64,000 nt of DNA from the NCBI GenBank assembly GCA_963755775.1, contig CAVWKY010000004.1:42483-106482 (forward strand), in the 5' to 3' direction. A program made the translations under genes and the position numbers. This document shows positions 5,701-64,000 of the stretch, piece by piece. This stretch comes from an uncultured Actinomycetes bacterium (GTDB lineage Bacteria; Actinomycetota; Thermoleophilia; Solirubrobacterales; 70-9). A model generated the notes under the pieces. The model saw nothing but the letters and a program-made list of their open reading frames with translations. It was not told the origin of the DNA and made no database searches. How positions within the stretch are numbered: position 1 is the stretch's first letter; the number at the start of each line of letters is the position of its first letter.

Positions 5701-6561
5701 ATGGAGCCGAAGCACATTGACCCGGTCGAGTTCCGCGACGGCCAGCGCAAGCAATGGAATCAGGCCGCCACGGGCTGGCGCAAGTGGTCGGACTTGATCG
5801 ACCGGTCGGCGAGAGTCGTCAGCGAGCGCCTGGTCGAGATGGCCGAAGTCGGGCCCGGAAGCCGCGTGCTCGACGTAGCCGCTGGGTACGGCGAGCCGTC
5901 ACTCACCGCGGCTCGCGCCGCGGCCCCGGACGGCACCGTGGTGTCCACCGACATCTCCGCCGAGATGCTGGCCTACGGGCGCGAGCGTGCCGCGAACGCG
6001 GGCATCGACAACATCGAGTTCGTGGAGTCCGATGCGGCCGGCCTGGACTTTCCCGAGCAGAGCTTCGACGCGGCGTTGTCGCGCTTCGGGATCATCTTCG
6101 ACCCCGACGGCGAGGGCTCCGCGGGTGTAGTTCGTCGCCTCCTGAAGCCCGGCGGGCGGATGGCGATCGGTTCGTGGGGCCAGCCCGAGCAGGTGCCGTT
6201 CATAGCGATCCCGATGGGGGTTGCGATGCAGCGCCTCAACGTTCCGCCGCCGCCGCCCGGAACCCCTGGGCCGCTTTCCCGCCCCACTCCCGAGGCCCTC
6301 GGTGGCCTGCTGGGGGGCGGCGGGTTCTCGGAGGTGAAGGTGGAGGACGTCGAGGTCACCTTCGAGTGGGAGTCCCCCGAGGAGTTCACGACCTTCGTCC
6401 GGGAGATTGCCCCCCCGATCCGGGCGATCATCGACCCCCACCCCGAGGAGGTTCAGGACGAGACCTGGCAGGCGATCACGGATGCCATCCGGCAACAGGC
6501 GGCCGATGATGGGAGCGTGAAGCTCACGAATCTCGTCCTCATGGCAGTTGGTCGGGCTTAG
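5701..6561 (+). CDS. class I SAM-dependent methyltransferase
   Basis: Intact 286-aa ORF. It has motif I (RVLDVAAGYGEPS) and the post-I/II pattern (DISAEML...FVESDAAGLDFPEQSFDAALSRFG). AAGGAG lies just upstream of the ATG. Confidence 0.8.
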   Translation: MEPKHIDPVEFRDGQRKQWNQAATGWRKWSDLIDRSARVVSERLVEMAEVGPGSRVLDVAAGYGEPSLTAARAAAPDGTVVSTDISAEMLAYGRERAANAGIDNIEFVESDAAGLDFPEQSFDAALSRFGIIFDPDGEGSAGVVRRLLKPGGRMAIGSWGQPEQVPFIAIPMGVAMQRLNVPPPPPGTPGPLSRPTPEALGGLLGGGGFSEVKVEDVEVTFEWESPEEFTTFVREIAPPIRAIIDPHPEEVQDETWQAITDAIRQQAADDGSVKLTNLVLMAVGRA

Positions 6562-6593
6562 GTAGCGCAGGGGGAGAGCGCTCCAGCACGGCG

Positions 6594-7424
6594 ATGAAGT
6601 ACGGGATCGCCGTTTTCGCGACCGAGGACTCGGTCGATCCCGGCACCCTGGCGCGGATGGTCGAGGAGCGCGGGTTCGAGTCGCTGTTCTTGACCGAGCA
6701 CACCCACATCCCGGCGTCGCGCAGGACTCCGTATCCCGCGGGCGGGGAGTTGCCACCCGAGTACAGCCGCACGTATGACCCCTTTGTCGCGCTGACGGTC
6801 GCCGCCTGCGAGACCGAGAAGCTCCTCCTGGCGACCGGCATCTGCCTGGTGGTCCAGCGGGACCCAATCATCACCGCGAAGGAGGTCGCATCGGTGGATC
6901 GGCTCTCGGGGGGACGGTTCCTGTTCGGCGTCGGGGCAGGCTGGAACGTCGAGGAGATGGAGACCCACGGCACCGACCCGCGGCGCCGCTTCTCACTGAT
7001 GCGGGAGCGAATTGAGGCCATGAAGGCGATCTGGACTCAGGACGAGGCGTCCTACCACGGCGACCAGGTCGAGTTCGATCGCATTTGGTGCTGGCCCAAG
7101 CCGCTCCAGGACCCCCACCCGCCGGTCCTGGTGGGCGGCAACGGCGACCGAGTGCTGGATCGGGTGGTCGCCTTCGGCGACGAGTGGATGCCGAATCGCG
7201 TCTCCGGATTGCGGGACCGGATCGCGAAGCTCCAAGAGCTGGCGGCCGAAGCCGGACGCGATCCCATCCCAGTGACGCTCTCGGGCGCGAAGCCGGACCT
7301 CGACCTGATCGCGAGGGGCGAGGAGGCCGGCGTTCACCGCTGCGCCTTTTACATCCCGACCGCGGATGCGGGTGCGACCGAGCGCCACCTCGACCAGCTC
7401 GGCTTGGCGCTGGAGCTGTCCTAG
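6594..7424 (+). CDS. LLM-class (luciferase-like) F420-dependent oxidoreductase
   Basis: Intact 276-aa ORF. MKYGIAVFATEDSVDP...GFESLFLTEHTHIP...GICLVVQRDPIITAKEVASVDRLSGGRFLFGVGAGWNVEEME is typical of the Rv2161c-type LLM family. Confidence 0.8.
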   Translation: MKYGIAVFATEDSVDPGTLARMVEERGFESLFLTEHTHIPASRRTPYPAGGELPPEYSRTYDPFVALTVAACETEKLLLATGICLVVQRDPIITAKEVASVDRLSGGRFLFGVGAGWNVEEMETHGTDPRRRFSLMRERIEAMKAIWTQDEASYHGDQVEFDRIWCWPKPLQDPHPPVLVGGNGDRVLDRVVAFGDEWMPNRVSGLRDRIAKLQELAAEAGRDPIPVTLSGAKPDLDLIARGEEAGVHRCAFYIPTADAGATERHLDQLGLALELS

Positions 7425-8845
7425 AGCGGTGAACGGAGCGGGCTAGCCGCGGAGCGCTGCGGGCTCGCTATGCGTCGCCCCGCGGCGGCCCCGCGACGGC
7501 CCGGATGCCTGGCGATCGCCGGCTCGCGGCGGGGAGTGGGGCGTGAGGAGGGTGGGTTGTCGGCCGCCGGTGAGATGAGCCCGGACGGGGCGGCATCCGC
7601 AGGCCGCGGAGTCGTATCTGCCGGCGGAGAGGGGGTGGGCGGAACATCCACCGGGGCGGTGTTCACCGGTGCGGGTGGGGGAGTCGTCTGCACGGGGGCC
7701 GGCCCGTTGCCCACGGGGGAGGGGGGGTGAGGAGGATCGACCGGTGGCGGGGAGATGTCGGCCGGACGCCTTGGAGACAGGCCGGCTGGATCGGGTGTTC
7801 GCGGGACCTCCACTGCAGGCGGCGTGAGATCGGCCGGAGGCGTCGGAAGGTCGGCTGCCGGAGGAGTCACGTCGATAGGCCGGCTCGGCGGTGCGATGGG
7901 TCCGACGTCAACCGGCGGAGCCAGGGGGGAGAGGTCGATCGGGCCGACGTCGACCGGCGGTGGAGCGACCGGTGGCGGGTCGATCGGGCCGACGTCGATC
8001 GGCGGCGGTGAGACCGGTGGGGGATCGATGGGGCCGACGTCGATGGGAGGCGGAGCGACCGGTGGCGGGTCGATCGGGCCGACGTCGATCGGGGGCGGAG
8101 CGACCGGTGGCGGGTCGATCGGGCCGACGTCGATCGGCGGTGGTGAGACCGGCGGGGGATCGATGGGATTGACGTCGATGGGGGGCGGAGCGACCGGTGG
8201 CGGGTCGATCGGGCCGACGTCGATCGGCGGCGGTGAGACCGGCGGGGGATCGATGGGATTGACGTCGATGGGGGGCGGAGCGACCGGTGGCGGGTCGATC
8301 GGGCCGACGTCGATCGGCGGTGGTGAGACCGGCGGGGGATCGATGGGATTGACGTCGATGGGGGGCGGAGCGACAGGCGGAGGCGCAACGCCCGCCGGTG
8401 GCGGCGAGACGGGAGGCGGACTCGTGGGAGCAACACCAGGTGGCGCTGGGGCCATCCCGGGCGCCCCTGGGCCGGACGGGCCGGACGCGGTGCCGAACGG
8501 GACCTCCGATGGCCCGCCGCCGGGCACCGCATTACCGCTCGCGGTCGCGGCTTCGCCGGACTCCGACGGGCCCTTCGCCACCGCGGCGGGTGCCTGACGT
8601 AGCGCGGCGGCCGCGCTGGCCGGAGCGGTGGAACCGCTCGATCCCAAGTAGGCGACGGACGCGTCGCCGCTCGACCCTCCGAACGGGAGCCCCGTGAAAG
8701 CGACGAACGTGGCGAGCGCGAGGAAGATGATCAAGGTGCCGCTGGTCAGCGCCGTCGTCGCCCCGGCCCCCGCCAGGTAGGCGCGCAGGTGGGCTCGAGG
8801 ACGGGCGACGCCCGGCGTCGAGGCGGTGTGGGCAAGGCTCGTCAT
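7421..8845 (-). CDS. membrane-anchored proline-rich repeat protein
   Basis: ORF 7421..8881. The likely start is ATG 8845 (MTSLAHTAS...). One TM segment (LTSGTLIIFLALATFVAFTGL) is followed by a long extracytoplasmic Pro-rich region with about ten 15-aa units, PPPV[AS]PPPIDV[GN]PID. Confidence 0.65.
   Translation of the reverse strand: MTSLAHTASTPGVARPRAHLRAYLAGAGATTALTSGTLIIFLALATFVAFTGLPFGGSSGDASVAYLGSSGSTAPASAAAALRQAPAAVAKGPSESGEAATASGNAVPGGGPSEVPFGTASGPSGPGAPGMAPAPPGVAPTSPPPVSPPPAGVAPPPVAPPPIDVNPIDPPPVSPPPIDVGPIDPPPVAPPPIDVNPIDPPPVSPPPIDVGPIDPPPVAPPPIDVNPIDPPPVSPPPIDVGPIDPPPVAPPPIDVGPIDPPPVAPPPIDVGPIDPPPVSPPPIDVGPIDPPPVAPPPVDVGPIDLSPLAPPVDVGPIAPPSRPIDVTPPAADLPTPPADLTPPAVEVPRTPDPAGLSPRRPADISPPPVDPPHPPSPVGNGPAPVQTTPPPAPVNTAPVDVPPTPSPPADTTPRPADAAPSGLISPAADNPPSSRPTPRREPAIARHPGRRGAAAGRRIASPQRSAASPLRSPL
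7934..8375. repeat. tandem 45-bp (15-codon) coding repeat, about 10 copies, with a 90-bp higher-order unit
   Basis: Units 8101-8190 and 8281-8370 are identical, and 8191-8280 differs from them at one base. Flanking copies are progressively more diverged. Confidence 0.9.
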
Positions 8846-9022
8846 CGACCGGGTCGAATTACCCAGGCAGGCGGCCTTCAAACGCTCCCGCCGGCCCTTA
8901 CCGAGAAGTCCTTAGCCAATCCGAGGGTGTCCTCGGTTTCTTGCGCGGATTGGGTTACCCAGGATCTGGGTGCCGCGTCGATACCGCAGCGCACTCGTGG
9001 AGAGGGCAAGAGCCTCTGTCGC

Positions 9023-9254
9023 TCAGACTTCTCCGCTGTCCTCGTCTCGCTCGGTCGAGGAGATGTGGACGGGCTCACCGTACGCGGCCTGCGGGTCGTC
9101 GGGCTCCGGCTCTCCAGCGAGCTCTCGGGGATCCGGGGCGTCCGCACCGTGGGTGGCGTTCTCGATCAGCTCGCGCTCGCTCTCCTCGAACCCCTCCGCG
9201 GTACGGCGTACGGGCGATCGGCGGAGGCAAACGGGACTGTCCCCGGCCTAACAT
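9023..9254 (-). pseudogene. possible remnant of a small acidic protein gene (no usable start codon in frame)
   Basis: A minus-strand frame reads ...AEGFEESERELIENATHGADAPDPRELAGEPEPDDPQAAYGEPVHISSTERDEDSGEV with a stop at 9023-9025. That frame has no ATG, GTG or TTG. The only ATG (9254-9252) is in another frame. Confidence 0.25.
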
Positions 9255-9582
9255 GGACGAGGTTCACGAAGTGGCCTCCTGCGCTCATCTCGATCACGTC
9301 CACGTCAAGCGACTCCCGGACTCCGTGGAGGGCTGCGAGGATTGCCTCGCCACCGGCGACTCATGGGTGCACCTGCGTATCTGCCTGGAGTGCGGCAAGG
9401 TCGGCTGTTGCGACACCTCGCCGAACCGCCATGCCAGCGCCCATGCCCACAGCAGCGGCCACCCGCTCATCCGCTCGCTTCAGCCCGGGGAGGAATGGTG
9501 CTGGTGCTTCGTCGACGAGCAGGCGCTCCTGATTCCGGCGGTCAAGGGCGAAACGCGGATCCCGCCATCGCCTTTGGACTGA
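9253..9582 (+). CDS. UBP-type zinc-finger domain protein (109 aa)
   Basis: This is the internal ATG of ORF 8941..9582. CAHLDHV...CEDCLATGDSWVHLRICLECGKVGCCDTSPNRHASAHAHSSGHPLIRS...WCWCF has the Cys/His spacing of zf-UBP proteins. Confidence 0.7.
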   Translation: MDEVHEVASCAHLDHVHVKRLPDSVEGCEDCLATGDSWVHLRICLECGKVGCCDTSPNRHASAHAHSSGHPLIRSLQPGEEWCWCFVDEQALLIPAVKGETRIPPSPLD

Positions 9583-56626: not shown

Positions 56627-56925
56627 TGCCTCTCTGGGAGCCAAGGACGGTGGCGCGAGTGTCGAACGAAGCCCTCGAAGCTGCCGGGCTGCGGGAGTAG
56701 GCGAGTCGCAGGCCATGAGCCCGACGGGAATCAGCCGAAAATGGGGATGCGCCATCGGCCTGGCTGCGCCAAGATTGGAGTCGCCCGGCCAGCGCCCACC
56801 GAACGAAAGGCACGCATGAGTCCCACGCTACGACCTCGTCCACGGATGACCGCGAGCGCCAGGGGCGGTCGTCGGTCCGCGGAGGCGTTCGGCGACGATG
56901 GCGCCTACGGGCCGTGGGTGGCGTC

Positions 56926-58866
56926 ATGAGCGCGGCGAAGCCCAAGCGCATGGAGAAGCCGGCGCGCGGCGAACGCACAGACAGCAAACCGGCGCCTGCG
57001 CCCCAGAGCGCCGCGGCGCCCTCGCCCTTCCCACCGATCGCCGACTACGCCTTCCTGTCTAACTGCCACACGGGCGCCCTGGTCGCACCGGACGGCGCGA
57101 TCGACTGGCTCTGCGTACCGCGGTTCGACTCGCCGAGCGTCTTCGGCGCCCTGCTCGACCGCCAGAACGGCGCCTTCCGCTTCGGGCCCTTCGGGATCAA
57201 CGTGCCAACGGCACGGATCTACGAGCCGGGCACGAACACCATCGCGACGACTTGGCACACGCCGATGGGTTGGGTGCTGATCCGCGACGCGCTCACCATG
57301 GCCCCGAGTCAGGGGGAGGACAGGATCACGCCGCACACCCGGCCGCCGGCCGACGAGGACGGCGAGCACCTGCTCGTGCGCACGGCGCTCTGCATCGAGG
57401 GGAGCGTCGAGCTCGAGCTGGTCTGCGAGCCGACCTTCGACTACGGCCGCGCGCCGGCCGAATGGAGCCTGGGCGGCGACGACCGGCAGACCGCCGATGC
57501 GACCGGCGCCGGGCAGACGATCCGGCTGCGCTCCGACATGCAGCTGGGGATCGAGGGCGACCGCGTCCGGGCGCGGCACGCGCTCCAGAAGGGAGAGCAG
57601 ATCTTCTGCTCGCTCTCGTGGGCCGAGGAGCTGGCGTCGCCCGAGGACGTCGACGATGCGAACGCCAAGCTCGCCGCGACCGCGCACTTCTGGCGCGACT
57701 GGCTTGCCCGGGCCCGGATGCCCGACCATCGCTGGCGCGAGCCGATCCAGCGCTCGGCGCTGACGATCAAGGGCCTCACCTACATGCCAACCGGCGCCAC
57801 GGTCGCGGCGCTCACGACCTCGCTCCCCGAGACGCCCGGGGGCGAGCGCAATTGGGACTACCGCTTCACCTGGATGCGCGACACGACCTTCACCCTCCAG
57901 GCGCTGCATTTCCTCGACCTCGACTGGGAGGCGGACGAGTTCATGCAATTCGTTGCCGACCTCGAGGCGAATGAGGACGGGGCGCTGCAGATCATGTACG
58001 GGATCGACGGACGGCGCGACCTGACCGAGTCGACCCGCGACGAGCTCTCCGGCTATGCCGGGGCGCGTCCGGTGCGGATCGGCAACGGCGCCTTCGACCA
58101 GCGCCAGAACGATGTCTTCGGCGCAGTCTTGGACTCGATCATGCTCCACACTCAGCGCAGCCAGCGGCTCCCGCGCCGCCTGTGGCCGATCGTCCAGGCG
58201 CAGGCCGAGTGCGCGGTCAAGGTCTGGCGCGAGCCCGACCAGGGGATCTGGGAGGCGCGTGGTGCGCCGCGGCACTACGTCTCCTCGAAGCTGATGTGCT
58301 GGGTCGCGCTGGACCGGGCGGCAAGGCTGGGCGCGATCGCTGGTGATTCTGAGCTCGAGGTAAGCTGGCGGGCCACCGCCGAGGAGATCCGCGCCGACAT
58401 CCTCAAGCACGGGGTGCGCGACGGGGTCCTGCGCCAGCACTACGAGACCGAGGCGCTTGACGCCTCGACCCTGCTGGCGGCGATCTTCGGCTTCCTGCCC
58501 GGAAACGACGAGACCCTGCGACGCTCGGTCGAAGCGATCGCGGACGAACTCACCGAGGACGGGTTCGTGCTCCGCTACCGGACCGACGAGACCGACGACG
58601 GGCTCTCGGGCAAGGAGGGCAGTTTTCTGATCTGCTCGTTCTGGCTCGTCTCGGCGCTCGCGATCGTCGGCGCTGAGCAGCGCGCTCGCGACATGATGGA
58701 GCGCCTGCTGAGGGTCGCCTCGCCGCTCGGGCTCTACGCCGAGGAGTTCGACACCGGCACCGGCCTCCACCTCGGCAACTTTCCCCAGGCCTTCTCGCAC
58801 CTGGCCCTGATCGCGGCCGCGGCGCCGATCATTCTCGCCGAGCGGCTGCGCGAGTACAGGGGATGA
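56926..58866 (+). CDS. glycoside hydrolase family 15 (glucoamylase/trehalase-like)
   Basis: IADYAFLSNCHTGALVAPDGAIDWLCVPRFDSPSVFGALLD...RNWDYRFTWMRDTTFTLQAL...GNFPQAFSHLALI. Confidence 0.85.
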   Translation: MSAAKPKRMEKPARGERTDSKPAPAPQSAAAPSPFPPIADYAFLSNCHTGALVAPDGAIDWLCVPRFDSPSVFGALLDRQNGAFRFGPFGINVPTARIYEPGTNTIATTWHTPMGWVLIRDALTMAPSQGEDRITPHTRPPADEDGEHLLVRTALCIEGSVELELVCEPTFDYGRAPAEWSLGGDDRQTADATGAGQTIRLRSDMQLGIEGDRVRARHALQKGEQIFCSLSWAEELASPEDVDDANAKLAATAHFWRDWLARARMPDHRWREPIQRSALTIKGLTYMPTGATVAALTTSLPETPGGERNWDYRFTWMRDTTFTLQALHFLDLDWEADEFMQFVADLEANEDGALQIMYGIDGRRDLTESTRDELSGYAGARPVRIGNGAFDQRQNDVFGAVLDSIMLHTQRSQRLPRRLWPIVQAQAECAVKVWREPDQGIWEARGAPRHYVSSKLMCWVALDRAARLGAIAGDSELEVSWRATAEEIRADILKHGVRDGVLRQHYETEALDASTLLAAIFGFLPGNDETLRRSVEAIADELTEDGFVLRYRTDETDDGLSGKEGSFLICSFWLVSALAIVGAEQRARDMMERLLRVASPLGLYAEEFDTGTGLHLGNFPQAFSHLALIAAAAPIILAERLREYRG

Positions 58867-59342: not shown

Positions 59343-59963
59343 GTGACCGTCGCGTCCACACTGCCGTTGGCCTTCGTGATGATCGCCGGACCGCAGATCA
59401 TCAGCTCGTTCTTTCTCGCCACCAGCGAGAAGTGGAAGGGGGATTCCGTCGCATACGTCCTCGGCGCAGCGGTATCGCTGCTCGCCGTTGTCACGGTCGC
59501 TTACTTCGTCGCCAAAGGAATCAAGGACGGCAGCAGCCACGAGGGCTCGCAGTCGCAGACGATCGACTACGTGATCGTGGCCCTTCTCCTCGTTGCGATG
59601 GCCCACGTGTTCCTCCGCAGGAAGCAGTCGGAACCTCCAAAGTGGATGGGCAAGCTCGAGACGGCGACTCCCAGGTTCACCTTTACCCTGGGCTTTCTGC
59701 TCCTGGGTTTCTTTCCCAGCGACCTGATCTGCTCGGTCGTCATCGGCACCCACCTGGCTAATCACGGTGACCCCTGGTGGCACGCGCTTCCCTTTGTGTT
59801 CCTCACCCTCTTCCTGCTGGCCCTGCCCGCCCTGCTCGTCTTGGCGCTCGGCCAACGAGCCGAGACGTTGCTTCCCAAAATCCGTGACTGGATGGGCACG
59901 AACTCCTGGATCGTCAGCGAGATCGTCCTGGCGTTCTTCATCGTCATCGTGCTCAGCGGGTAG
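59343..59963 (+). CDS. GAP-family (Sap-like) membrane protein
   Basis: 206-aa ORF with PLAFVMIAGPQIISSFFLATSEKW... and six hydrophobic segments. Confidence 0.6.
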   Translation: MTVASTLPLAFVMIAGPQIISSFFLATSEKWKGDSVAYVLGAAVSLLAVVTVAYFVAKGIKDGSSHEGSQSQTIDYVIVALLLVAMAHVFLRRKQSEPPKWMGKLETATPRFTFTLGFLLLGFFPSDLICSVVIGTHLANHGDPWWHALPFVFLTLFLLALPALLVLALGQRAETLLPKIRDWMGTNSWIVSEIVLAFFIVIVLSG

Positions 59964-60109: not shown

Positions 60110-60574
60110 CTAAGTGCTCGCCAGCACCGTATGCGTCGAAAGCTCGGCGCTTCGCTCGAGCACATGAGCGAAGCCTTGCTCGAGCTGGCGCTTAAAGATC
60201 CGGTCCATTGCTCCTCCGATCACCGGGATCGGGATCTCGAACGATGACGTCCACACCGCGTTCGTGCCGGTGCCGTCGGCCTTGAGGCGGATGCTGCCGC
60301 CCCCGTGGCGGAACGGAAGCGTCTTGACGTGTCTGATCAGGTAGTCGAAGCGCCGCGGGGGGTCAAAGGCGGTGATTTCTTCCTCGAAGCGAAGCGGTCC
60401 GAGCCAGACCCAGCGGACGGCGCCGAGACCGTTCGGGTCAGAATCCCCGGGTTCGATCAGCTCCGAGCGGCGGATCCCGTCGAAGCGGTCGTAGCGCGCA
60501 TGGTCGGCGACGATCTCAAATACCGCCTCGGGTGGCGCGTCCAGCCGTCGTTCGACGCGAATCGACCGCCTCAT
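60110..60574 (-). CDS. SRPBCC-family (polyketide cyclase/START-like) protein
   Basis: RSIRVERRLDAPPEAVFEIVADHARY... Confidence 0.7.
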   Translation of the reverse strand: MRRSIRVERRLDAPPEAVFEIVADHARYDRFDGIRRSELIEPGDSDPNGLGAVRWVWLGPLRFEEEITAFDPPRRFDYLIRHVKTLPFRHGGGSIRLKADGTGTNAVWTSSFEIPIPVIGGAMDRIFKRQLEQGFAHVLERSAELSTHTVLAST

Positions 60575-61005
60575 CCTACGTCGCTCTGCTCCGCCAGTCC
60601 CATGTCCGACAGCGTAGCCCGCGGGGACTTCGTCGAGCGGTGTCCGAGGCGAAGCCGCGCTTGGGCTGGGAGCGCTCGCGCTTTGGCGTGAAAGCGAAAG
60701 CGCCAGCTCATTGGCGTCCTAGTCGCGGGAAATTCCAAATTTTCGCGCGAAGGTGAGAGCGCCTCCGCGGACCGTTCGGTTCCCACTGGCGTCCGCCGCT
60801 CGTCCTGCCGCGCGACCGGTGCTCGGAGGATGGCCGGCATTAGCTGGCCATACTTAGGTGGTGGCTCGCTCGGGAGAAGAGATCGTGTGGCGAGTCGTAG
60901 AGCTCTTCGCGGCGCCGGCAGCGCAGCCGCGATCAGTTCCCGGCGCGGACCGGTCATACGCATTGAGAAGCCGCGGCGACAGCGGCCGCCTACTGAGGAG
61001 GCGCG

Positions 61006-61173
61006 ATGAGCAAGCTTAGGTGTCATATCTCGATCTCCGTGGACGGTTTCGTCGCTGGCCCGAACCAGAGCGAGGAGAACCCGCTCGGCGAGGGCGGCGA
61101 GGGCCTTCACGACTGGGTGGTCCCGCTGGCCGCCTGGCGCCAAGCCCACGACACACTGACTCACCCTGAGTGA
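61006..61173 (+). pseudogene. 5' stub (55 codons) of a dihydrofolate-reductase-family (RibD C-terminal-like) gene
   Basis: GAGGAGG is followed by ATG 61006. MSKLRCHISISVDGFVAGPNQSEENPLGEGGEGLHDWVVPLAAWRQAHD reads into a stop at 61171-61173. In my experience family members are about four times longer. Confidence 0.5.
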
Positions 61174-61272
61174 AAGGCTGGTCCTTCGGCGGTCGCCGGA
61201 TTCGCCGCCTAGCCCTAATGGACTCTGCTGACGCACCGGCCTCCGCGTTGATCGACTCTCCCGGAGGTTCCA

Positions 61273-64000
61273 ATGCGCTCGCGATTCCGTCCCCACGACA
61301 CCATCGTCGCCTACCTGGCCGCCGTAACCGTGCTTGTCTGCCTGTTCGCGGTTCCGGCTGCGGCACTCGGACAGACCAAGCCCACAGAAGTCGGCTCGGA
61401 GGCAGAGCTGCGGGCCGCCTGGGCGGACCCGTTGCAGACCGAGATCGAGCTCACCGACGACATCTTCCTGCGGGCGTGCCTGCGTGGCGGGCCGATTCGG
61501 GAGTCCCAGCGTCCGATGACCCTGGATGGCAACGGCCACACGATCCGACAGACCTGCTTCGAGAAGCGGCTGCTGCGCCAGGACGGCACCGGCTTCCTCC
61601 TGATTAAGGACGTCACCCTCACGCGGGGCGGTAACGACGGCCCCGGCGCGGCGGTCACGACGCGGGGGGAGATCGTGCTGAAGGATTCCAAGGTGATGGA
61701 GAACCTCTCCGAGGAGCCGGGCGGCGGGATCTTCTCGCAACGAAGGGCGACGATCATTCGCTCCGTCATCACCGGCAACCTGGCGAACGACGACGGCGGA
61801 GGCGTTTACGCCCGCCGCGGCGGGATCCAGGTCTTCGACTCGATCGTCAGCAACAATCTCGTCGACGGCTCCGGCGGCGCACTGGGCTCGACCGGTGACA
61901 TCCTGGTCGTGCGCTCGCGCGTCGACGGCAACACCACCGACGGGGACGGTGGCGCCATCTACACCGACGAGGACGGGGACGTGACGGTGATCGACTCGAC
62001 CGTTGACGGCAACGACGCCGATGGCCCCGGCGGCGCGATCTTCACCCTCGAGGGCGACGTCACGATCGTCAACTCGACCCTGAACGGCAACCGTGCCGAC
62101 GATCGCGGTGGCGCGATCTCGGGCGAGGCCGACGTGACAGTAATCAACTCCACGATTGCCCGCAACGCCGCCGTCGCGCATGTCGGCGGGGGAATCTGGG
62201 CTCGCAGTGACCTGTTCGTTGCCAACTCGACGATCAGCAACAACTACGCGGAGGGCGAGGGAGGCGGCGTTCTCGCCGCCGGAACCGTCGGCCTCGTCAA
62301 CTCGACGGTCCTCGACAACATCGCGTCGGTCGCGGCGAACGTCGGGGCCGGCGCGCGGCTGGAAGCCTTCGGCTCGATCATCGGCCCCGCCGACACGAGC
62401 CCAACCGGGGGTCAGGTGCAGCCAACGGAGACGAATTGCCGCGTCACGGCTTCGACCTCGGCTGGCTACAACTTCGTCAGCGACGACTCCTGCGGCCTGG
62501 AGGGGCCCGGCGACGCGATCGGCAGCGGGGACCCGATGCTTGAGGCCCTCGCGGACAACGGGGGTAGGGGCGAGACGCGTTTGCCCCTGCCGGGCAGCCC
62601 GGTGCTGGACCGGATACCCGTCGGCCAATGCGCGTTTACACCGTTCGGCTACGACCTCGAGGGCGAGCAGCATCTCGCCCGGTTCGGAATCGACCCCCTG
62701 GCTCCGATCACCACGGATCAACGCGGGGTCGGTCGTCCGCAGGATCTGGGATGCGAGGTCGGTGCCGTCGAGCTTTCCTCGCTTCCCCCTGCTTCGCCAC
62801 CTTCGCTGCCCACGCCGCGCCAACCGGAGCCCGGAGATGGGCCGACCTCAGGAATGGGCGATCACGACCTCGACTCGTCGCGTCCCGTGGCACCGGCACT
62901 TCGGACGGTGCAGAAGGGACACAAGGCGTCCCCGCGCAGGCAGGATCGACGCCGCCACGGCGGGCGATCGCTTCGCTCGAAGGTCCGGAGGCTGGAGAAG
63001 CAGTTCGCCTTCAACCAGGGGAGAGTCGAGTTGATGGAGCGGATCGCGAGGAACTTCCGTCACTGGATGACCTGCGTTTCGCCGCTGCCGGTGAGCGAGT
63101 ATGGAGACCCCGATCACCGGTCAGGCTTCCTCTATGACGAGAGGGACGGAACCGGACTCGACCGCAGGCCGGCACTCGCGGTTGGCACCGGAAACCGGGG
63201 CCGCCCCGACTACCTGTTTCTCAAGTTCGCCCATCGCGACGACTGTCAAAGCGCTCCGACCAGGCCTGGGACCCCGGGCTCTCCGGGCACGGGCGACAAT
63301 GCCAAGCAGAGGGCTCCACAGGGGTCGCTTCGGTCGAGGGTTCGGGCTCTCGAGCGGGGGGTGACGGACCTCGACAGAAGGGCCGTACGCCTGGATTCAA
63401 TGTCCGAGCGTTTCGATGAGTGGGAGTCGTGCCTGTCGTGGATACCGGTGACCGAATACGGAGACCCGGATCGAGAGTTCGGATACCTCTTCGGGCGCCA
63501 AGGAAGTGAGCCCGGATACAGGCCGGCTCTGGCCGTCGACATCAGTGAATGGGACGATCCCGACTACGAGTTCCTCGCCTTCAAGGGCCGGGACCGACCG
63601 TTCCGTGAACGCGAGTGTGGAAATGAGCCGGGGGAGGAGGTCGACAAGGCCCCTGCGGCGGGGCGCTCAGCAAAGGCGCGCGGACCGCACCGGAGAGGCA
63701 AGTCCTCCCTGCGTGACAGGGCGGCGGACGTTGGCCAGGAGTTGAGCTCGCTGCAGGAGGAGGTGGAAGACCTGGGGGAGCCGGTGCAGGAGTTCGCGAT
63801 CTTCGATCAGTGCATGCACACGATCGGGGTCACCGAGTACGGAAGCAGGTCGGGCGGTTCTGGCTACCTCTACGGCGCAGGCCGCAGGCCCCGGCCCGCA
63901 TTCGCAATGGACATGCGCGGCTTGAACTCCCCCGAGTATCAACTCCTGGCATTTCCCGGGGAGGAGCCGCCCAGCATCGAGTGCAATGAAGACGCGGGAG
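61273..64000 (+). CDS. secreted beta-helix (Pmp/PbH1-type) protein with choice-of-anchor-Q-like domain and C-terminal tandem modules; 3' end outside window
   Basis: GGAGG lies 5 nt before ATG 61273. I translated all 909 codons to position 63999 and found no stop. There is a signal peptide (MRSRFRPHDTIVAYLAAVTVLVCLFAVPAAALG). The turns are of the type NSTxxxN...GG[GA][IV]. GYNFVSDDSCGLEGPGD...DPMLEALADNGGRGETRLPLPGSPVLDRIP...DQRGVGRP...CEVGAVE follows. The ORF is not in the supplied track, presumably because it has no stop in the window. Confidence 0.85.
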   Translation, partial: MRSRFRPHDTIVAYLAAVTVLVCLFAVPAAALGQTKPTEVGSEAELRAAWADPLQTEIELTDDIFLRACLRGGPIRESQRPMTLDGNGHTIRQTCFEKRLLRQDGTGFLLIKDVTLTRGGNDGPGAAVTTRGEIVLKDSKVMENLSEEPGGGIFSQRRATIIRSVITGNLANDDGGGVYARRGGIQVFDSIVSNNLVDGSGGALGSTGDILVVRSRVDGNTTDGDGGAIYTDEDGDVTVIDSTVDGNDADGPGGAIFTLEGDVTIVNSTLNGNRADDRGGAISGEADVTVINSTIARNAAVAHVGGGIWARSDLFVANSTISNNYAEGEGGGVLAAGTVGLVNSTVLDNIASVAANVGAGARLEAFGSIIGPADTSPTGGQVQPTETNCRVTASTSAGYNFVSDDSCGLEGPGDAIGSGDPMLEALADNGGRGETRLPLPGSPVLDRIPVGQCAFTPFGYDLEGEQHLARFGIDPLAPITTDQRGVGRPQDLGCEVGAVELSSLPPASPPSLPTPRQPEPGDGPTSGMGDHDLDSSRPVAPALRTVQKGHKASPRRQDRRRHGGRSLRSKVRRLEKQFAFNQGRVELMERIARNFRHWMTCVSPLPVSEYGDPDHRSGFLYDERDGTGLDRRPALAVGTGNRGRPDYLFLKFAHRDDCQSAPTRPGTPGSPGTGDNAKQRAPQGSLRSRVRALERGVTDLDRRAVRLDSMSERFDEWESCLSWIPVTEYGDPDREFGYLFGRQGSEPGYRPALAVDISEWDDPDYEFLAFKGRDRPFRERECGNEPGEEVDKAPAAGRSAKARGPHRRGKSSLRDRAADVGQELSSLQEEVEDLGEPVQEFAIFDQCMHTIGVTEYGSRSGGSGYLYGAGRRPRPAFAMDMRGLNSPEYQLLAFPGEEPPSIECNEDAG
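62968..64000 (+). repeat. three (or more) tandem, diverged protein-level modules of about 119-127 codons inside the open-ended ORF
   Basis: Modules start at 62968 (SLRSKVRRLEKQ), 63325 (SLRSRVRALERG) and 63706 (SLRDRAADVGQE). All three share F-x2-[WF]-x2-C-x3-[LI]-[PG]-V-[ST]-E-Y-G, G-[FY]-L-[FY], R-P-A-[LF]-A-[VM], P-[DE]-Y-x-[FL]-L-x-F and a second Cys. Confidence 0.8.

Follow-up and report, generated by a model that had tools for sequence, protein, structure and literature searches.

The stretch of DNA analysed here, hereafter the window, comprises 64,000 nucleotides from an uncultured Actinomycetes bacterium of the Solirubrobacterales (GenBank assembly GCA_963755775.1, contig CAVWKY010000004.1, positions 42,483 to 106,482 of the forward strand). 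At its 3' end lies a gene whose product combines a right-handed parallel beta-helix of the PMP type with three consecutive homologous modules, denoted m1, m2 and m3 and together the triplet, which are the subject of this study. The open reading frame (ORF) starts with the ATG at 61273 on the plus strand, downstream of the last in-frame stop codon at 61249-61251, and contains the following features, where confidence values (predicted local distance difference test, pLDDT) refer to the AlphaFold model of the full-length protein.

61263-61267, plus strand: GGAGG, Shine-Dalgarno-like as read from the sequence, 5 nucleotides before the start codon
61273-64000, plus strand: ORF of the whole protein, of which the window holds 909 of 914 codons; missing are GLFTN and the stop codon
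61273-61371, plus strand: putative N-terminal signal peptide, MRSRFRPHDTIVAYLAAVTVLVCLFAVPAAALG, with approximate cleavage site; helix at residues 8-25, then a low-confidence segment in the model
61372-62808, plus strand: PMP-type right-handed parallel beta-helix and choice-of-anchor-Q end domain, residues 34-512
62809-62967, plus strand: non-conserved, disordered Pro-rich linker, residues 513-565; pLDDT below 50 for residues 513-563
62968-63324, plus strand: module m1, with basic heptad helix (62968-63072), five-stranded beta head and PGT-rich tail
63073-63075 and 63244-63246, plus strand: Cys601 and Cys658, Cys pair of the m1 head
63325-63705, plus strand: module m2, with charge-neutral heptad helix (63325-63429), head and CGxEPGExVD tail
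63430-63432 and 63616-63618, plus strand: Cys720 and Cys782, Cys pair of the m2 head
63706-64000, plus strand: module m3, with acidic heptad helix (63706-63810), head and C-terminal peptide
63811-63813 and 63982-63984, plus strand: Cys847 and Cys904, Cys pair of the m3 head

The window end cuts the gene five codons and the stop codon before its completion, as seen from the database protein P0121, which is 100% identical to the window protein, comprises 914 residues and ends in ...ECNEDAGGLFTN. A shared conserved C-terminal peptide marks the end point of all complete homologs; its m3 motif PGEEPPxIECNEDAGG is nearly invariant. An earlier reading of the window, made from its letters alone (the sequence-only reading), had let the array of modules run past the window end, but P0121 stops five residues on, leaving exactly three copies. 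The best conserved of the three modules is m2, in which the motif SEWDDPDY is invariant. The linker columns (residues 513-565) are without consensus in the homolog alignment.

Frame +1 is open across 62968-64000, and the segments 62968-63324, 63325-63705 and 63706-64000, with periods of 357 and 381 nucleotides, align end to end with 21 invariant columns including both cysteines. In pairwise BLASTP comparisons m1 and m2 are 38% identical (E 2e-23), m2 and m3 34% (E 3e-15) and m1 and m3 30% (E 3e-10). Tandem Repeats Finder detects no module repeat at the nucleotide level, the copies being too diverged, and the triplication is therefore old and not a product of recent slippage. Orthologous modules are 50-67% identical across taxa as compared to 20-40% between paralogs, so that each copy must be maintained, and both cysteines are invariant in 43 modules from all three classes. 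The sequence-only reading had thus correctly described three consecutive homologous modules with the above periods, diverged to about one third identity without recent slippage and individually maintained, and the motifs it listed (C-x5-V-x-EYG, GYLF, RPALAV, PDYxFLxF and C) are all present.

That the module region is untranslated, or that the repeat is a compositional artefact of DNA rich in guanine and cytosine (high-GC), is scarcely conceivable. Many long shadow ORFs do arise in high-GC DNA, among them an antisense ORF of 750 residues (60571-62823, minus strand), which overlaps the beta-helix gene and is such a shadow and not a gene. However, more than 660 protein homologs are found, the structure model is confident, and comparison with an 80%-identical relative yields 83 synonymous and 67 non-synonymous codon changes, with 110 changes at codon position 3 versus 45 and 36 at positions 1 and 2. 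The artefact explanation is already refuted by the conservation data, and the lack of translation that the sequence-only reading had named as fatal to its proposal is contradicted by conservation and by the pattern of codon changes.

In order to place the module among known families, the three window modules were compared with Pfam-A and NCBIfam, which gave no match at E ≤ 1 for any of them, and 43 family modules scanned singly against Pfam at E ≤ 10 gave scattered single matches only, all with E > 0.04. PHROGs contains no match to the module, and sequence profile searches of the PDB returned only coiled-coil peptides with E > 0.1. Foldseek comparison of the model of the triplet (tail model) gave a best E of 0.41 against the PDB, with TM (template modelling) scores of 0.14-0.20, and a best E of 0.27 against BFVD. 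In RefSeq and UniRef the carriers are labelled 'hypothetical protein' or 'right-handed parallel beta-helix repeat-containing protein', and no description of the module was found in the literature on choice-of-anchor, rhombotarget and PMP proteins in Actinobacteria. The C-terminal unit is hence an undescribed family without sequence or fold neighbour in Pfam, NCBIfam, PHROGs, PDB and BFVD, as the sequence-only reading had anticipated when it could assign the module to no recognised family.

Several candidate assignments were discarded on the way. A few homologs had been labelled in advance with Pfam families (PF23991, PF09278, PF14965), which represent coiled-coil noise on the helices, and sub-threshold matches to coiled-coil families such as DUF7310, LPP, bZIP and Trimer_CC cover helix segments only. 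The same is true for MerR-DNA-bind in P0065, the sole match above its cut-off (26.0 versus 25.4 bits).

The N-terminal half of the protein is readily classified. Pfam identifies Chlam_PMP (50.8 bits, cut-off 20.6), Beta_helix (41.0, cut-off 25.9) and Pectate_lyase_5 (29.5, cut-off 24.3), and NCBIfam identifies POMP_repeat (40.6 bits, cut-off 15) as well as choice_anch_Q NF041518 (45.4 bits, cut-off 25), which closes the beta-helix; the placement of the modules on a secreted beta-helix scaffold by the sequence-only reading is borne out by these matches. In PMP-type proteins the coils of the parallel beta-helix are built from repeats of the type GGA(I/L/V) (PMC11166332, PMC10715098). In the alignment of 86 homologs, reaching down to about 50% identity, the beta-helix has well over 100 invariant columns including all six of its cysteines. 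The motifs ANDDGGG, DGSGGA, DGDGGA, DGPGGA, DDRGGA and QTCFEKRLLRQDGTG are largely invariant in the same sequences. Such conservation is far above what would be expected for an adhesin and suggests a constrained enzymatic, metal-binding or assembly role.

When the full-length model is submitted to Foldseek only the beta-helix part is matched, best by Rhombotarget A (9cdu/9cdv, E 5e-5), followed by phage tailspikes, the L. reuteri SRRP and polysaccharide lyases. The likeness to the chlamydial Pmps and to Rhombotarget A (RbtA) is confined to this PMP-type beta-helix, since Pmps end in an autotransporter barrel and RbtA in a GlyGly-CTERM signal, whereas the window protein ends in m1-m2-m3. Against the Rhombotarget A model TIGR04212 the window protein scores 18.9 bits, with an equivalog cut-off of 295, and its C-terminus ...NEDAGGLFTN contains no transmembrane segment. 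The structures 9cdu/9cdv seem to originate from work on the design of macrocycle binders (PMC12643943), from which no functional lead was taken. The beta-helix half is an ordinary member of the PMP/choice-of-anchor-Q proteins, and the novelty lies in the terminal unit.

For a census of the family, a hidden Markov model (HMM) built from 43 pooled modules was used for an exhaustive search of 1.84 billion representative proteins (E ≤ 1e-3). It retrieved 231 clusters only, all of the same system of beta-helix and modules. No single-module, possibly homotrimeric, ancestor and no distant family appeared in this search; matches with a single stretch represent either fragments caused by frameshifts or m3 subunits that stand alone and have signal peptides of their own. 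Relatives are encoded in 120 stretches of GTDB species representatives, and the best 80 of these 120 all belong to Actinomycetota, with Solirubrobacterales, Thermoleophilaceae, Conexibacter, Rubrobacteraceae and the cultured genera Nocardioides and Mumia as carriers. Among the cultured carriers are Nocardioides euryhalodurans, N. mangrovi, N. caricicola JCM 17686, N. zeicaulis CCM 8654 and Mumia xiangluensis.

The arrangement was compared in 85 loci that span Thermoleophilia, Rubrobacteraceae and Nocardioides/Mumia. In all 85 the order is beta-helix, m1, m2, m3, each present once, and for every position the closest window module is the one of equal rank. The unit is thus a fixed triplet of position-specific ancient paralogs and not an open-ended array. 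Occurrence, copy number and the sole partner domain, the beta-helix, which the sequence-only reading had proposed to seek with an HMM of the modules, were obtained in this way. Four types of gene arrangement are found:

One fused ORF, as in the window: 36 of 85 loci
Two genes, beta-helix and m1m2m3, often with a 4-nucleotide stop/start overlap: 13 of 85 loci, 11 intact and 2 with a fragmented beta-helix
Three genes, beta-helix, m1m2 and m3: 20 of 85 loci, 16 intact and 4 with a fragmented beta-helix
Other, broken or truncated versions of the above: 16 of 85 loci, plausibly due to frameshifts in long-read assemblies

The stop codon, the next start codon and the signal peptide of the split-gene relatives are located where the linker lies in the fused form. 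Locus L005 is an example of a naturally split trio, with the beta-helix at 6244-8004, m1m2 at 8001-8867 and m3 at 8860-9345. A hydrophobic, signal-peptide-like N-terminus is present on the individual pieces in most split loci, so that these splits are genuine and the subunits are exported separately. Among 366 module-containing proteins a long N-terminal extension is present in 127, and all 127 extensions match this beta-helix. Seven apparent exceptions turned out to be out-of-frame, frameshifted junk. The series of fusions and fissions provides Rosetta-stone evidence for a 1:1:1:1 complex, and a physical association of the triplet with the beta-helix therefore appears likely.

Lipoprotein anchoring of the split m3 is not a general trait, as most of its signal peptides end in A-x-A, which is signal-peptidase-I-like, and the Cys positions are inconsistent. 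A clean lipobox is found only in P0289, a standalone m3 of 163 residues, in which the signal peptide ends in LAAAC and runs directly into the m2-tail motif GNEPGESVD; judged from this motif, the m3 subunit may be lipid-anchored in one lineage. Another single-module protein, P0276 (139 residues), appears to be a natural chimera, as its first half resembles m1 and its second half m2.

Several genomes contain two or more paralogous cassettes. At least one pair (L058/L062) is located on the same contig, about 9 kb apart; further locus pairs of this kind are L010/L012, L017/L024, L021/L045, L083/L084, L016/L066 and L074/L085. Locus L039 harbors at 6962-7840, directly 3' of a complete m1m2m3 gene, an extra ORF with an m2-like and an m3-like module only.

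The AlphaFold2 model of the tail, built on an alignment of 69 sequences, has a mean pLDDT of 85.9, reaching about 95 from the first helix residues onwards, and a predicted template modelling score (pTM) of 0.83, which is not expected for three independent domains. Each module is predicted as a helix of 34-35 residues followed by five strands. In all three helices the heptad a/d positions (6, 9, 13, 16, 20, 23, 30 and 33) are hydrophobic in at least 74% and mostly in more than 90% of the 69 homologs, position 27 being weaker (49-99%), so that each helix displays the a/d periodicity of a coiled coil over four or more heptads. The net charge of the helices is graded, with means over the same homologs of +3.8 for m1, +0.2 for m2 and -10.2 for m3, and values of +6, 0 and -8 in the window protein. 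The sequence-only reading had let every module open with a basic heptad stretch; the heptads are indeed present in all three, while only that of m1 is basic.

The Cys pair brackets the beta head, with one cysteine at the first residue of the head and the other just beyond its last strand, and the two residues probably form a disulfide staple. The intramodule disulfide of the sequence-only reading is accordingly plausible in view of the invariance of both cysteines, and for the same reason the covariation of the pair, through which it was to be probed, is uninformative.

Contacts between the modules were inferred from mean-field direct coupling analysis (DCA) of 216 distinct m1+m2+m3 concatenates, with an effective sequence number (Neff) of 123. 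The top couplings within modules match the beta ladders of the AlphaFold model, e.g. 40-82, 38-84 and 42-80 in m3. Among the top 100 couplings, 17 connect helices of different modules, and 14 of these have an offset of at most 5 (background 0.29; binomial p = 7.8e-6), whereas an antiparallel arrangement fits only 2 of the 17. Three canonical g-e' pairs occur in cyclic order, namely m2 R19 with m1 E24, m3 R5 with m2 E10, and m1 position 12 with m3 position 17. Most of the offsets amount to 3-5 and not to 0, for which a coiled-coil geometry is a better explanation than concerted evolution of paralogous positions. In a parallel bundle the chain has to run back along a helix of about 52 Å, a distance that the inter-module spacers of 26-29 residues should be able to span. 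Parallel, in-register helix contacts are thus indicated by the DCA couplings and the pTM of 0.83 rather than by viewed coordinates, and according to these models the three helices most likely pack as one parallel, in-register three-helix coiled coil. Covariation and AlphaFold model alike point to a single bundle, contrary to the independent arms that the helices had been taken for in the sequence-only reading.

The full-length model, based on the 86-sequence alignment, has a pLDDT of 80.1 and a pTM of 0.79 despite the disordered linker of about 50 residues. Were its two bodies, of about 480 and 350 residues, not docked to each other, the pTM would by our estimate be only about 0.5, and the model thus implies, as a prediction, that the triplet is docked to the beta-helix.

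Taken together, we assign a probability of roughly 0.6 to the interpretation that the fixed m1-m2-m3 triplet is a pseudo-trimeric coiled-coil body and the obligate extracellular partner of one PMP-type beta-helix. Each module would consist of a heptad helix of about 35 residues and a small, disulfide-stapled head with a five-stranded beta-sheet. The helices, graded from basic via neutral to acidic, would zip into one parallel, in-register three-stranded coiled coil, such that a single polypeptide builds a pseudo-trimeric body with three non-identical heads; relatives would build the same body from two polypeptides, m1m2 and m3. In the window protein, beta-helix and triplet would be held together by the disordered linker, and in relatives they would be encoded by adjacent, often overlapping genes and exported separately.

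As to function, our tentative preference is for a pedestal or non-covalent envelope anchor of the beta-helix, analogous to SLH or CWB2 triplets, because the triplet fills the C-terminal anchor slot of choice-of-anchor-Q proteins and mirrors the three-repeat logic of SLH and CWB2. The domain name choice-of-anchor-Q presumably marks proteins that carry an anchor at this C-terminal slot. The adhesin or enzyme-display role suggested by the sequence-only reading is neither favoured nor contradicted by these results. Somewhat more doubtful is the more far-reaching proposal that the triplet represents an undescribed fold that acts as a self-contained heterotrimerisation device, with charge-coded helices allowing one order only, and a new class of envelope anchor in monoderm Actinomycetota. 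If true, Actinomycetota would possess in it an equivalent of the SLH and CWB2 triplets known from Firmicutes, and the 'anchor' slot of choice-of-anchor-Q proteins in these lineages would be taken by it.

The triplet resembles the SLH (S-layer homology) triplet (PF00395) of Gram-positive surface proteins in that three tandem, diverged repeats form one trimer-like unit at the terminus of a cargo in monoderm bacteria, and in SLH this unit has a pseudo-threefold geometry with central helices. Three tandem repeats of the SLH trimer hold a secreted surface protein non-covalently on the envelope (PMC6081394). In contrast to SLH, the present modules are about twice as long, each comprising a 35-residue heptad helix and a disulfide-stapled beta head, and the unit is often a polypeptide separate from its cargo. 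The CWB2 fold differs as well and is without coiled coil; in SlpA, the anchoring chain and the chain with the functional part are distinct but remain bound to each other. In the CWB2 triplet (PF04122) of Clostridioides difficile, three tandem motifs are jointly required for the non-covalent attachment of surface proteins to a wall polymer (PMC4973711). All these systems have in common that exactly three tandem repeats form one terminal unit of a secreted protein, yet the analogy is one of function only. Neither PF00395 nor PF04122 is matched by the window modules at E ≤ 1 or by the 43 family modules at E ≤ 10, and the tail model has no Foldseek match to the SLH fold; the triplet is not homologous to CWB2, and wall binding would be assumed by analogy alone.

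Two further architectures are reminiscent of the module itself. In collectins, a three-stranded parallel coiled-coil neck leads straight into three disulfide-stabilised heads, a combination that is also predicted here. However, collectins are homotrimers of separate, identical chains, whereas the triplet consists of three different paralogs on one chain, or on two (m1m2 and m3), and no C-type lectin signature or fold is matched by the modules. Type IV pilins possess a long N-terminal helix followed by an antiparallel beta-sheet with a disulfide, and minor pseudopilins form hetero-trimeric tip complexes via their helices. The modules share with them the succession of a helix and a beta-sheet with a stabilising disulfide, but their helices are charged and amphipathic (+6, 0, -8) and not hydrophobic membrane anchors, a prepilin peptidase motif is absent, and no pilin is found among the Foldseek matches, so that the modules cannot be counted among the pilins. 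The single-chain, charge-graded heterotrimeric coiled-coil design is unusual.

A number of observations weigh against this interpretation of the triplet and its preferred function. The bundle and the docking rest on pTM values, heptads and covariation and not on viewed contacts or predicted aligned errors, the effective sequence number of 123 is low and phylogeny can inflate couplings, and the model is of low confidence for the conserved tails that follow the second Cys. In DCA between beta-helix and tail (Neff 76) a few hub columns prevail, a pattern that resembles phylogenetic signal and speaks neither for nor against docking. With respect to anchoring, the window protein contains no known wall-binding, lipid or sortase motif, and both the tail (-8) and the beta-helix (-31) are acidic, which is awkward for binding to anionic wall polymers. 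Clustering of all ORFs of the 85 loci also reveals no conserved neighbour gene that would hint at function, the maximum being 14 of 85. The recurrent neighbours are an RTX-like protein or reflect lineage-specific synteny, e.g. Mfd in Nocardioides. The 14 loci, a subset from Solirubrobacterales-like genomes, encode a secreted RTX-type Ca2+-binding protein directly 3' of the cassette on the same strand. This protein combines HemolysinCabind repeats with a collagen-like GAPGxP stretch (about 7200-8119 in L022 and 9178-10038 in L002).

The last-mentioned neighbour would also suit a triplet that serves as a ligand-binding end, lectin-like or Ca2+-dependent, with three non-identical heads on a coiled-coil neck and the beta-helix as a stalk or second functional domain. 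Further support for such a role comes from the very conserved acidic, aromatic and Gly-containing head motifs EYGD, YDERDGTG, SEWDDPDY and ECNEDAGG, from the coiled-coil neck that directly precedes each disulfide-stabilised head, and from the presence of several paralogous cassettes per genome, which fits diversified specificities. We nevertheless regard it as unlikely, since no lectin or carbohydrate-binding module family or fold is matched and a diversifying binder would not be expected to keep its heads so conserved between the classes of Actinomycetota. Moreover, some of the conserved tails covary, albeit noisily, with neighbouring modules, which suggests that they are structural straps rather than ligand sites.

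A different explanation for the strict partnership is that the triplet merely assists assembly or folding of the beta-helix, or caps it, as an intramolecular or partner chaperone in the extracellular space, without any anchoring or binding of its own. The strict 1:1 co-occurrence, the translational coupling with stop and start codons overlapping in several loci, the high pTM of the fusion model suggestive of a docked complex and the extreme conservation of the beta-helix are all in line with this. Three differentiated heads and an invariant C-terminal peptide would however not be needed by a helper, and, to our knowledge, other PMP/choice-of-anchor-Q beta-helices fold without such a partner, which renders the explanation improbable. 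Least credible among these alternatives is an adhesin stalk of beads on a string, the implicit model of the sequence-only reading, in which independent modules occur in variable copy number. Tandem modules with low-complexity Pro/Gly-rich spacers do give this appearance, but the number of three in 85 of 85 loci with an orthologous class of its own for each position, the triplet pTM of 0.83, the inter-helix covariation and the complementary helix charges make it very improbable. The pseudo-trimeric body with the beta-helix as its partner thus remains the preferred interpretation.

The family comprises about 230 clusters at 50% identity and is restricted to a small number of actinobacterial lineages; it is unannotated, has a confident predicted structure and shows no detectable relative. 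Its fusion/fission series predicts a four-part extracellular complex of 1:1:1:1 stoichiometry, and the graded helix charges suggest a simple code for the ordered assembly of a heterotrimer, which may be of interest to protein designers. Should the triplet prove to be an envelope anchor, it would represent a new anchoring principle for Actinomycetota. By virtue of the presence of the family in cultured Nocardioides and Mumia, localisation and binding are directly testable.

Upstream of the gene the window encodes a GH15/trehalase-like glycoside hydrolase (56914-58866, plus strand), a Sap (SfLAP) family membrane protein (59343-59963, plus strand) and an SRPBCC polyketide-cyclase-like protein (60110-60574, minus strand), none of which adjoins the cassette in other genomes. 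Just 5' of the beta-helix gene lies an ORF of 55 codons (61006-61173, plus strand; MSKLRCHISISVDGFVAGPNQ...) without Pfam match, which by eye is similar to the N-terminus of RibD_C/dihydrofolate-reductase-family proteins and looks like a truncated remnant.

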